Of a stretch of 31,647 bases of DNA, positions 1 to 3,000 are shown in pieces. The position numbers are program-made. Within the stretch, counting starts at the first letter, position 1; each line of letters opens with the position of its first letter. The DNA lies in IMG/VR virus record IMGVR_UViG_2681813201_000018, positions 1 to 31,647 of that record; one strand, given 5' to 3'. Source of the stretch: a virus (Duplodnaviria > Heunggongvirae > Uroviricota > Caudoviricetes).

Positions 1-3000
1 ATGATGAAAAAAAGTATTCTGGCGTTTCTGTTACTCACCAGTTCTGCAGCGGCGCTGGCTGCACCGCAGGTGATTACCGTCAGCCGTTTTGAAGTGGGTA
101 AAGACAAATGGGCGTTTAATCGCGAAGAGGTGATGCTGACTTGCCGACCGGGTAATGCTTTGTATGTCATCAACCCAAGTACCCTCGTGCAGTATCCTTT
201 AAACGATATCGCACAAAAGGAAGTTGCCAGTGGGAAGACTAAAACCCAACCCATTTCGGTGATTCAGATTGATGATCCTAACAATCCCGGCGAAAAAATG
301 AGTCTGGCACCGTTTATAGAACGAGCTGAAAAACTCTGTTAATTACCTAAAATAGCCTTTTGATTTCCAATAAAAAACCGCCTCAGTTCTTTCACCAGAA
401 CGGGCGGTTTTTAACATTTAAGCTGATGACCACCGCGCTTTTTATTGACCATTTTGCACGCAAACTGGAAAACCTGGCGTCGTCATCTATTCTTAAAGGG
501 CAAGGCAACTAAGCCTGCATTAATGCCAACTTTTAGCGCACGGCTCTCTCCCAAGAGCCATTTCCCTGGACCGAATACAGGAATCGTATTCGGTCTTTTT
601 TTAATTGTATTTAAAATCAATTAGTTGCAAACGTCTCCCCGAAATTCCCCGAAATTTACTCGAATTTCTGTATTCCGGTCTTTTTTGGTTATATCACAAC
701 CAAAATACATTTAACAATCCATTTACGTAAAAATCAGAGCAGTAAGTACGTTTTTTCTCTCTCATCAAGATACAGTTTTGTTGTCTTCTCCGATGTGTGA
801 CCAAGTAGGCGCTGGGCAAATTCTTCTCCACATGTTTCTTTGTACAATCGTCCAGCCAGACTTCTGATCTCGTGAAAAGTTGGTGGGTTTTCACTGAACT
901 GAATACCTGTTAATTTTCTGGCTGCGACAAATTTTTTTGTCAGGCCATCCGGGTGAATGCTGCCGTCAGGGCTGTTTTTTCTAATCCCGGCACTGATTAG
1001 ATAATCTCCCCGGCTTACCAGGCGGCACCGTTCAACTACTGTACCAAGCCGTAGGCCAGCGACAGGAAGGCTGAGTGACAAGGGGATAGCAATCATCATT
1101 CCTGTCTTAATTTGCCTGATGTGGAGACGATCATCATAAATATCACTGAACCGCATATTCGTTATGTCTTCGCGACGTTGTCCTGTTACAAGGGCTAAAT
1201 CCATAGCTAATGGGAACCATGCCGGAAGTTGATCTGCTGCCTCCCTGATGCAGTTGTATGTCTTTAGTTTCAGTCGTTCTCTTGTAACTACTATTTTCGG
1301 TGCTCTTGTTGGTGTTACTGGATTTTGAGATATACGTCCTTCAACAATGGCCTCGCGGAACATATCAGATAACACAGAACGCATTGATCCTGCCATCGTG
1401 TTTTTCCCTCCTTCAATCCACAAATCAAGAAACTCGGCAATATGGCGAGTGGTTATTTCTGTCAGTAAAATCTCTCCCAATTTTTCTTTTATTGTCTCCA
1501 GTTGATTTACCCGAATTTTATAAGTATTTCTGGACACTTTTCTCCTTATAAGAATCGTTTTGTAACGTTCAATCCAGTCTGCCATAGTAAATGAGTCGAA
1601 CCCTTTAAGTTTTTCAATTAAGGCAGCAGTAGAGTAGTTTTTGTATATATAATGATTTGCTTCAATTGCCTGCGCGATTGCATCTCTTCTTGAAATTTTA
1701 CCTAGTGTAAATTCTTCTTTCGTCAGAGGGTTGCGCCAGTAATATGCTTTGTCCCTCCTTCGATATGTTAAGTTTTTAGGCAAATTGGGATCGTATTTTT
1801 TCCGCTGCATGTTTTAACTTCTCCAGTAACGGACTGTCTCTCCCTTGTCGCCCATTAGGCTGATGGTGTGTTATATCGGTATCAACCTTATTTGGGTTGA
1901 TATAGAAAGCTTCCGGAACCACCCTGTAACTCCTCCCGTGTAGTTCAGGTGCAGGATAAATGTTTCCATTCCTTGCCCATCGTCTCAGCGTTGATATTGA
2001 TGGTGGGTTATCCGGATATCTGAGTTTTCCCCACGTTTTGAGTGTCACAAGATTCATTGCCATACCTCTTACGATATGACCGCCAGTAAATATACAGAAT
2101 ACTGGCGGGTGTGGTTGATTTTTAATAATCAGCTATGAAGTTCTAATTTGTATATAATGCAACTCACGAGGACAGAAGTTTCTCGCAATTAAAATTTATC
2201 AGCTTTACTTTCTGCTCTCTGGACACGCCTGCTTCTTTTTTCCCTGAGAGCATTTTTTCGCATTCTGATTTCGTTAATTTAGATTTTGAATATCTTGTCC
2301 AGTTAGTAGGAGTGCCACCTTCTTTTTCAATAGTGGCAGTTATTTTATACATGAACACCTCCATTATTATTTCCAGTAGTTCGTTTATTCCATCTTTCGA
2401 GTGCTTCTTTTTCACTTCCACCATAGCCAGTTCGGGATTCGCATCCGTTGCATTTTGCCCGGTAATATCCTGAAATTGCTTTCACTGTAACAGATGGACA
2501 ACCACAAAACGGACATGGTTTAACATCGTCATATCTCATAATTTTTGTCATAAAAACTGTCTCGCGTTGGCGGTGCATTACACCGCCAGGCTGAATTATT
2601 CTTCTGAATTATCGATCACACTGTATTCCCCGGTTAATACAGAGGAGTCTGCCGGATCGATTGTCAGTGGTTCCTTTTCATCCATTGATACTGCACGCTG
2701 GATTTCAATTGAGACAGGCAGGTATTTAAACAGGCGACGAATAGCCGTTTTTTTTGCCATTTCTTCCCAGTGAGTTACCCATGGCCCGTTATTACCAGCC
2801 TTACTCTGGCTGCGCACCAGCTCAATCTGTTTGCGCGTCATAACTTCAAACTGAGTACCTCCGTCTTTCAGTCTTGCGACAGCATAGACGTGGGTAACCG
2901 GGGCATCTTCGTTTTCTCCTGGGCGGTGTATTAACTTTTCATCAAGGCCAAATTCGAAATTAAATTCGTCACCTTCACGGACAACACGGGCTGACAGGCT

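Follow-up and report, generated by a model that had tools for sequence, protein, structure and literature searches.

The window, a stretch of 31,647 nucleotides (31.6 kb), opens with the host gene yebY, which carries this annotation in every matching genome, and continues through a complete gene for the small RNA SdsR (also RyeB) and the region encoding its antisense partner SraC/RyeA, before phage DNA leads into int and xis (Table 1). The SdsR/RyeB covariance model scores 118.1 bits on the plus strand at 503-602 against an RF00111 threshold of 38, and SraC/RyeA scores 179.1 bits against an RF00101 threshold of 37. Across its promoter region (420-502), sdsR shares 98-99% identity with other E. 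coli. In K-12, sdsR is annotated between yebY and pphA; yebY lies upstream here, and pphA has been displaced by the prophage. ARAGORN found neither tRNA nor tmRNA, so the att site described below is not of the tRNA type.

Table 1. Features at the host-phage junction, in window coordinates
Feature	Position	Strand	Basis
yebY (DUF2511), flanking host gene	1..342	+	ORF; Pfam DUF2511 E=1.5e-44
Hairpin between yebY and sdsR	368..410	undefined	Read from sequence
SraC/RyeA antisense RNA, Rfam model region only	462..606	-	Rfam RF00101, full model
sdsR/ryeB sRNA gene, complete	503..602	+	Rfam RF00111, model 1-100 of 100
SdsR intrinsic terminator	568..602	+	Stem 568/569-595/596, loop 579-585, U tract 596-602
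attB/attP common core	572..603	undefined	32 bp, 3 mismatches at 576, 588, 597
Uninterrupted identity block ACAGGAATCGT	577..587	undefined	Marker bases; strand exchange must fall here on their evidence
Phage P' arm of attL	604..733	undefined	Continuous with core in free phage attP
IHF consensus AATCAATTAGTTG, H'-like	615..627	+	Exact WATCAANNNNTTR match, +33..+45 from overlap centre
CCCCGAAATT, candidate arm-type Int site P'1	637..646	+	Exact tandem repeat
CCCCGAAATT, candidate arm-type Int site P'2	647..656	+	Exact tandem repeat
TACTCGAATTT, degenerate third repeat, candidate P'3	657..667	+	Offset +77..+84, as lambda P'3
GTATTCCGGTCTTTTTT, core-like copy of terminator 3' arm within P' arm	670..686	+	586-601 plus one inserted C
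Spacer, int-fossil-like	687..733	-	Minus strand 699-688 reads GTT GTG ATA TAA
int, lambda-family tyrosine integrase with arm-binding domain	734..1810	-	Pfam PF09003, PF22022, PF00589
xis (excisionase)	1776..2063	-	Pfam PF07825 E=6.5e-14; annotated excisionase in Z1813

SdsR ends in an intrinsic terminator whose arms, 569-578 (GACCGAATAC) and 586-595 (GTATTCGGTC), are 100% complementary, enclose a loop of 7 nt and precede seven T. The RNA folds into an 11-pair stem, and a scan of 340-900 returned the hairpin at 569-602 as the sole terminator-like site. An earlier account made without database searches (the sequence-only reading) had noticed this perfect 10-bp-stem terminator and had proposed that it marks either a short independent transcript or the att core. 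Both hold: the transcript is SdsR/RyeB and its terminator is the core. What that account overlooked is the sRNA pair and the cut-off of ryeA and pphA from their promoters. The stretch that it called free of ORFs does contain only short mechanical ORFs in 420-568, but it is in fact the promoter and gene body of sdsR.

The host-derived body of ryeA covers about 370-603. A hairpin between yebY and sdsR is probably a bidirectional terminator for yebY on the plus strand and RyeA on the minus strand; the K-12 ryeA 3' end (1923337) maps to about window position 370, and a consensus terminator scan did not pick up the hairpin at 368-410. The native ryeA promoter is a sigma70 promoter (-10 TATGGT), with the RNA 5' end about 38 nt past the sdsR 3' end (PMC6610125); in the K-12 annotation ryeA starts 38 bp past that end. 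This promoter and the first ~38 nt of ryeA (…gtcaACCATAacac…) were not found in the window; in lysogens the ryeA 5' sequence was found at attR beside pphA.

The int gene named by the sequence-only reading is real and lies on the minus strand. Its product matches PF09003 (Arm-DNA-bind_1) with 29.6 bits against a cut-off of 22, as well as PF22022 and PF00589, aligns over its full length to the lambda Int structures 5j0n and 1z1b (E=2e-72), and is 39-41% identical to the lambda and HK022 integrases.

Host-phage junction and the four att sites

We identify positions 420-733, with high confidence, as the junction of the sdsR/ryeA locus with a lambdoid prophage attL. Window positions 1-603 are matched in every one of the complete E. 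coli genomes (5426/5426), and host homology stops at 603. The uninterrupted yebY-sdsR-pphA site is present in 5189 of the 5426 genomes and the integrase-side arm (604-760) in 234. Positions 420-603 are universal in E. coli and 604-733 are found only together with this int (in the same 234 genomes), so that the proposed left prophage boundary next to int survived comparison with prophage-free genomes, with host sequence ending at 603.

A free phage (PP818812.1), whose Int is 97.8% identical, carries an intact attP in which P arm, core and P' arm are continuous. In the closest complete genome, O157:H7 Z1813, a prophage of about 44 kb lies between yebY and pphA, and the matching attR, some 44 kb off, adjoins pphA (L003, about 45395), thereby supplying the direct core repeat expected at the far prophage end. 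Nine more attR junctions from IMG/VR join the core and the same P arm to the E. coli right flank. The core is common to all four kinds of site, that is, the empty site, attL, attR (Z1813) and attP (PP818812.1).

Within the 31.6-kb window the core and its 16-mer are single-copy, and the search for an attR there found no second core. We infer that the attR of this prophage lies beyond the end of the window. The far prophage end was taken from a 99.3%-identical prophage of another strain together with IMG/VR contigs, and the attR of the source strain is expected to read …gttgacgaaAACAGGAATCGTGTTCGGTCTCTTTTTAtctgtt…. A one-mismatch core match at 7962, considered as attR, is at chance level and was rejected. 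An Int-based scan of genome contigs gave two loci only, both indel-ridden around the core, and these were left out of base-level arguments.

At the marker bases 576, 588 and 597, attB reads T-G-C and attP reads A-A-T; attL reads T-A-T (16 of 17) and attR reads A-G-C (9 of 10). These base differences among the four sites leave the 11-bp block 577-587, which comprises the terminator loop and its edges, as the interval of strand exchange. The inverted repeat used as attB is the DNA of the terminator hairpin. Its loop, AGGAATC (579-585), is the likely 7-bp overlap, chosen by symmetry, and the hairpin arms GACCGAATAC and GTATTCGGTC are likely the core-type Int sites in attB. One attL (L051) has the host-type C at 597, which needs either a variant attP or another exchange point.

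We propose that a lambda-type Int recombines the phage attP with the DNA encoding the SdsR terminator hairpin. The phage brings its own copy of the right half of the hairpin and of the T tract, so that insertion rebuilds a complete sdsR. The rebuilt gene carries two base changes, G588A, which turns a G-U pair into an A-U pair, and C597T, which yields an unbroken run of seven U, and its fold is unchanged (-32.5 kcal/mol here vs -32.9 kcal/mol for the native gene). When attP alone was folded, the SdsR hairpin did not form; thus the terminator becomes complete only in attL, through the host DNA.

Organisation of the P' arm

Rightward of 603, the proposed order is an IHF site, three repeats, the motif at 670-686, an int fossil, int and xis. 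Much of this arrangement is that of lambda, in which Int likewise has three domains including one for arm binding, int and xis adjoin P', the core is followed by H' and then by three tandem P' sites, and the IHF consensus lies at the H' offset (+33..+45). The repeats start at +56/+66/+77 here vs +54/+64/+75 for P'1-P'3 of lambda. The two systems differ in that their core and arm sequences are unrelated, that attB is an sRNA terminator hairpin here and the gal-bio intergenic site in lambda, and that int ends at +152 here vs +81 in lambda. By analogy with lambda P'1-P'3 and H', the N-terminal arm-binding domain of Int would be expected on 637-667 and IHF on 615-627; motifs similar to 615-627 recur at the equivalent position in many divergent arms.

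The tandem CCCCGAAATT repeats, which the sequence-only reading had already taken for arm-type Int sites, are present as two exact copies at 637-656 (equivalently 636-655). They form the sole exact tandem 10-mer in the window, and first-order Markov simulations give P ~0.013 for an exact tandem 10-mer anywhere in such a window. Across 22 arms whose integrases are 50-100% identical, the three C.GAAA blocks are invariant, with C.GAA as the invariant part of the third repeat, and the spacers diverge. The P arm carries CGAAA-type repeats at -160/-149/-128 and, on its minus strand, one-mismatch IHF sites at -47..-35 and -114..-102; with its H2-like site at -47..-35, its H1-like site and its repeats, this arm is again lambda-like. 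Phage-borne, positioned as lambda P'1/P'2, recurring in the P arm, invariant among relatives with integrases only 50% identical and accompanied by an Int with an arm-binding domain, the three CGAAA-type repeats of 637-667 are supported as arm-type Int sites, at which binding is predicted.

Within an element, the P arm and the P' arm always carry CGAA-type repeats; a search for strict covariation of the repeat variant between the two found no clean tracking of the flanking bases. The similarity of the repeat motif, CCGAAAT, to the core half-site, CCGAAT, makes it uncertain which Int domain takes which site.

The copy of the terminator 3' arm seen by the sequence-only reading is present beyond chance (0 of 20000 shuffles of 604-733 matched 586-601 within one edit), although it starts at 670 and not at 671. 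Its interpretation as a core repeat did not stand: the motif is a component of the P' arm, neither core repeat nor host duplication; it is phage-borne, forms part of the uninterrupted attP of the free phage and is retained in part by distant relatives. This extra core-like motif, at +88..+104, has no lambda counterpart and falls outside what the lambda-type attL model explains.

We tentatively consider, as less likely than not, that 670-686 serves the P' arm as a fourth working protein site, namely a core-like Int site in inverted orientation. Read as its reverse complement, GACCGGAATAC, it is similar to the half-site GACCGAATAC, the pattern TAT.C.G is invariant or nearly so directly after P'3 across arms with integrases 50-100% identical, and the arm sites of lambda also occur in both orientations (P1 +, P2 -). 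However, the motif is conserved only in part, lambda offers no precedent at the same offset, and in the 50%-identity class it shares bases with the int stop codon, so that coding constraint could explain the conservation.

It is unlikely that the CCCCGAAATT repeats instead bind another factor, such as Xis, a repressor or a host protein, or act in the promoter or UTR of a RyeA-like transcript driven by the phage. Minus-strand promoter-like hexamers do flank the repeats (631->604; 717->688), the repeat motif is not clearly distinct from the core half-site that it resembles, and the assignment to Int is a sequence-based prediction. A promoter scan of 340-900, however, returned one minus-strand site (631->604) vs 1.0 expected by chance. 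The repeats are three, direct, spaced by 10-11 bp and placed just where lambda has P'1-P'3, with an IHF site between them and the core and the same motif again in the P arm; moreover, Int has PF09003, and the Xis sites of lambda belong to the P arm and not to P'. These observations favour arm-type Int sites.

That 670-686 acts as a second intrinsic terminator, shielding int from sdsR read-through or ending the int transcript, is very unlikely. The motif does copy a genuine terminator's 3' arm and T tract and could form a weak CGAAU/AUUCcG stem with the third repeat, but that pairing partner is not kept in relatives, the terminator scan did not detect 670-686, and folds of 630-700 and 655-690 did not surpass those of shuffles on either strand (z ~0; local hairpin -2.5 kcal/mol), on which ground the terminator reading was rejected. 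It is extremely improbable that the boundary lies elsewhere, the hairpin being a host terminator only and 586-601/670-686 the trace, in direct repeat, of a small element inserted separately (604-669): the copies are direct repeats 84 bp apart, matching at 16/16 plus one indel, as fits a target duplication or the att pair of a tiny element, but the free phage attP runs unbroken through 577-733, both copies included, this stretch is found only with this int, the copy motif keeps a fixed offset in distant relatives, and the true second core stands beside pphA ~44 kb away.

Between this motif and int, the spacer at 687-733 looks like the remnant of an older int 3' end; integrases of 58-59% identity have their real stop codon within the homologous gTTAtaccag. 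Promoter-like hexamers on the minus strand at 717->688 were spotted by eye.

Predicted consequences for SdsR and RyeA, and comparison with other insertion sites

The insertion leaves ryeA without its promoter and detaches pphA from that of sdsR: the ryeA sigma70 promoter with the first ~38 nt, together with pphA, would be displaced by ~44 kb to attR. In K-12, RyeA transcription restrains SdsR, and pphA relies on the sdsR promoter through read-through of sdsR (PMC6610125). From these published K-12 data, transcriptional effects would be expected, and the ~4% of E. coli that carry the prophage, among them some O157:H7, O111 and O103 isolates, may show altered expression of SdsR, RyeA and pphA; on the K-12 data, RyeA and pphA would be expected to fall and SdsR to rise.

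More speculatively, and in our view doubtfully, the prophage might rewire the toxin-antitoxin-like SdsR/RyeA pair so that SdsR triggers RNase III cleavage of int mRNA in stationary phase. The minus strand has no terminator from the int stop codon (734) as far as the one of RyeA (~370); thus transcripts of int, or from promoter-like sites of the P' arm, should run antisense through sdsR. If this were so, the int mRNA would have a 3' UTR perfectly complementary to SdsR, with sigma-S-induced SdsR as the trigger, a host-sRNA analogue of lambda sib retroregulation confined to the integrated state; induction of the prophage would raise anti-SdsR RNA to very high levels in the cell, and 670-686 would belong to the 5' or leader part of the chimeric RNA, or else be a fourth Int site.

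In integration into the 3' ends of tRNA and tmRNA genes, exemplified by P4, P22 and CP4-57 (ssrA), the integrase acts on a symmetric stem-loop with which a small stable RNA gene ends, and a replacement 3' end brought by the element keeps the gene intact. Here, too, the 3' stem-loop of a small RNA gene is targeted and its 3' end resupplied. Unlike those sites, the one used here belongs to a regulatory sRNA that depends on Hfq and has a cis-antisense partner, and whereas insertion at tRNA and tmRNA sites leaves expression untouched, here it would rewire an sRNA pair and a downstream gene.

Passages in PMC7380047, PMC3333887 and PMC3603311 describe ryeB as a known phage attachment site at which lysogeny changes the 5' part of ryeA, and the ryeA/ryeB hot spot of Salmonella enterica as the attachment site of PhiW104 (Balbontin et al. 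2008, J Bacteriol 190:4075); the insertion hot spot at ryeB has thus been known in enteric bacteria since that report. As far as those passages go, the Salmonella site shares with the present one an att core formed by the terminator stem-loop, the final ~23-27 bp of ryeB, and an outcome in which the sRNA is restored and phage DNA takes the place of the 5' part of ryeA. It differs in its host, which here is E. coli with 234 of 5426 complete genomes occupied, and in its phage, which here is a Rac/Stx-like mosaic lambdoid. That phages land on the sdsR terminator, leaving SdsR intact but exchanging the promoter and 5' part of RyeA, its antagonist, is a modest finding, already known for Salmonella. 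For this window, an anonymous boundary with repeats becomes an assigned junction with two known sRNAs, an att core and predicted lambda-like IHF and arm sites.

The site is used by many elements, with at least 119 IMG/VR stretches and, among the matches listed, phage arms of dozens of types. This comparative set, in which dozens of arm types are joined to one 26-bp core and integrases are 49 to 99% identical among the matches listed, may serve as a series of naturally occurring variants that shows how lambda-family integrases recognise their arm sites.

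The sdsR terminator as a phage attachment site

The hairpin at 569-602, proposed as a terminator from the sequence alone, pairs two fully complementary 10-nt arms (569-578 with 586-595) around a 7-nt loop and ends in seven T (sequence reading, terminator scan). A full-length Rfam match to SdsR/RyeB (118 bits, threshold 38) ending on this hairpin identifies it as the SdsR terminator, and the short transcript suspected there as a known sRNA; the antisense RNA SraC/RyeA also matches at full length (179 bits). The upstream ORF is yebY, the K-12 gene order being yebY - sdsR/ryeA - pphA, and what had been described as an ORF-free stretch is the promoter and gene of sdsR.

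Positions 1-603 matched in all 5426 complete E. coli genomes, with the match continuing through 760 in only 234. A probe spanning the empty site was unbroken in 5189 of the 5426 genomes, so that about 237 are interrupted there, almost all carrying the same integrase-side arm as the window. The prophage-free comparison proposed by the sequence-only reading thus places the end of the host match at 603. In the closest complete genome, O157:H7 strain Z1813 (99.3% identical across 93% of a 24.5-kb query), about 44 kb of prophage separates yebY from pphA. This genome also supplies, as attR, the core repeat expected at the far prophage end; no second core copy occurs within the window, whose own attR falls past the right edge.

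Features of the locus and of its attachment sites (offsets from the overlap centre, 582 here; lambda offsets from its own centre)
Feature	Source or lambda position	Sequence or position here	Bases at 576-588-597
SdsR/RyeB	Rfam scan of window	503-602 (+)	
SraC/RyeA	Rfam scan of window	462-606 (-)	
Int		734-1810 (-)	
attB	empty site of prophage-free E. coli (L001)	…GACCGAATACAGGAATCGTgTTCGGTCTcTTTTTAtctgttaaaagcc…	T-G-C
attL	window	…GACCGAATACAGGAATCGTaTTCGGTCTtTTTTTAattgtattt…	T-A-T in 16/17
attR	Z1813	…gttgacgaaAACAGGAATCGTgTTCGGTCTcTTTTTAtctgtt…	A-G-C in 9/10
attP	phage PP818812.1, Int 97.8% identical	gttgacgaaAACAGGAATCGTaTTCGGTCTtTTTTTAattgtattt…	A-A-T
H'	+33..+45	exact IHF consensus AATCAATTAGTTG, +33..+45 (615-627)	
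P'1	+54	repeat at +56	
P'2	+64	repeat at +66	
P'3	+75	degenerate third repeat ACTCGAATT at +77	
H2	-47..-35 (minus strand)	IHF-like site, -47..-35 (minus strand)	
H1	-125..-113 (minus strand)	IHF-like site, -114..-102 (minus strand)	
P1 / P2	-142 / -111	CGAAA-type repeats at -160, -149, -128	

The four att sites were compared at marker positions 576, 588 and 597, whose bases place strand exchange in ACAGGAATCGT (577-587), a block of uninterrupted identity. By symmetry, the overlap region is likely the 7-nt loop AGGAATC (579-585), with the hairpin arms as core-type sites. One IMG/VR attL with the same P' arm (L051) has the host-type C at the equivalent of 597, where the 16 others have the phage-type T; this exception points to a different attP version, to correction of a mismatch, or to strand exchange lying more to the right. 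In another IMG/VR contig (L019:8800-8866), a long (ACGGAA)n tandem array adjoins the left side of a second sdsR core copy.

Inserting into the hairpin at the 3' end of a small RNA gene while restoring that gene is the classic tRNA/tmRNA strategy, and the window's prophage does likewise. The feature is real, the sequence-only reading of it was right in its main lines, and it is already known in kind, ryeB/sdsR being documented as a phage attachment site and insertion hot spot in PMC7380047, PMC3333887 and PMC3603311.

PP818812.1 is deposited as 'Actinobacillus phage vB_Apl-pPE4' with Actinobacillus pleuropneumoniae as host. Its attP fits the enterobacterial sdsR terminator, its Int is nearly that of the E. 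coli prophage, and about 32% of window 604-25000 is common to both at 94.6% identity, which makes the host label doubtful.

A lambda-like integrase and its candidate arm sites

Int has lambda's arm-DNA-binding domain (PF09003), central domain and catalytic domain, aligns along its whole length with structures of complete lambda Int (E=2e-72), and is followed by an excisionase of lambda type. The tandem repeats noticed beside int are beyond chance: CCCCGAAATT, exactly doubled at 637-656, is the window's sole exact tandem 10-mer; in simulations, one arises anywhere in 31.6 kb with P ~0.013. The architecture of the site is a close copy of that of lambda att (see table).

An IMG/VR scan with the core returned at least 119 DNA stretches holding an exact match. 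Among the matches listed, the flanks fall into dozens of types, and 79 of 113 right flanks carry, in the same orientation, an Int 49-99% identical to that of the window. When 22 such arms from the listed matches were aligned, spacers diverged and three C.GAAA blocks were invariant, as was TAT.C.G inside the 670-686 motif. Widely differing elements also have P arms in which two or three CCGAA-type repeats precede an inverted IHF-like site. This pattern is as expected for functional arm-type sites and, with the lambda-like offsets, supports reading the tandem repeats as candidate Int sites. What may be new is limited: a map of candidate arm and IHF sites for Ints of this family, the conserved motif resembling the core, and the fossil int ends.

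The 670-686 copy and a possible int fossil

The partial copy of the terminator's 3' arm also exists: GTATTCCGGTCTTTTTT at 670-686 matches 586-601 except for a single inserted C, and a comparable match occurred in none of 20000 shuffles of 604-733. Its proposed role as the att repeat did not hold. The attP of PP818812.1 continues unbroken through both CCCCGAAATT repeats and the copy, which is a phage-borne component of the P' arm. It occupies +88..+104, a stretch that in lambda already belongs to the int coding region. Read as its reverse complement, GACCGGAATAC, it is similar to the core half-site GACCGAATAC, a likeness that favours a fourth, inverted Int site as our best guess, though a tentative one; alternatively, it may be a relic of an older core. 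A host duplication was rejected on the continuity with attP, and a terminator since neither strand folds better than shuffled sequence.

Just right of the copy, the minus strand at 699-688 reads GTT GTG ATA TAA, and in two relatives with 58-59% identical Ints (L065, L114) the true stop codon lies within the homologous gTTAtaccag. From this homology, the spacer between the copy and the int stop (687-733) resembles the decayed 3' end of an older int that was left behind when the gene was replaced.

SdsR, RyeA and pphA in lysogens

Regenerated SdsR carries two base changes, its fold being unchanged (-32.5 vs -32.9 kcal/mol). In the K-12 annotation, ryeA starts 38 bp past the sdsR 3' end. Its promoter is of sigma70 type (-10 = TATGGT), its transcription interferes with sdsR, and most pphA transcription comes from the sdsR promoter by read-through (PMC6610125). 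In a lysogen, the native ryeA promoter and pphA are located at attR. We infer effects of insertion on the sRNA pair; for Salmonella phage PhiW104, PMC7380047, summarising Balbontin 2008, describes lysogeny as altering the 5' part of ryeA, with ryeA lowered and ryeB raised.

Within the P' arm, the minus strand holds two sigma70-like promoter candidates directed across the core towards the body of ryeA, which in lysogens could give rise to a chimeric RNA resembling RyeA. One, TTTGCA-16-TACAAT (631->604), comes from a scan whose count is at chance level; the other, TTGTTA-18-TGaTATAAC (717->688), has an extended -10 and was found by eye. Between int and the RyeA terminator, the terminator scan gave no hit on the minus strand, so int read-through antisense to sdsR is plausible.

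The sdsR-pphA spacer of prophage-free E. coli (L001:3105-3237, K-12 1922970-1923103), not in the window, aligns with a decayed integrase 3' end of the sdsR-targeting family (score 40 vs shuffle mean 16.2, sd 2.4; translation …KTLDSDSRVRVMV… vs Int C-terminus …KKYLDARGAEYVMV*). The published ryeA -10 lies within the VMV codons of this fossil, so the ryeA promoter called 'native', and perhaps also the lambda-phosphatase-like pphA, may be leftovers of an ancient element.

Within the prophage, many known regulatory RNAs exceed the Rfam gathering score, at 2168-2346, 7094-7145, 14305-14476, 16649-16850, 16988-17071 and 17976-18231. They are RalA (with ralR), DicF, sok (with hokD), c4/isrK, sRNA-Xcc1, STnc100 and AgvB, the EHEC anti-GcvB sRNA. 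At 17830-17889, Rfam matches part of the tRNA model (37 bits, positions 7-64) where ARAGORN calls none, and the related Z1813 prophage has a tRNA-Met annotated at the equivalent of 18099-18169.
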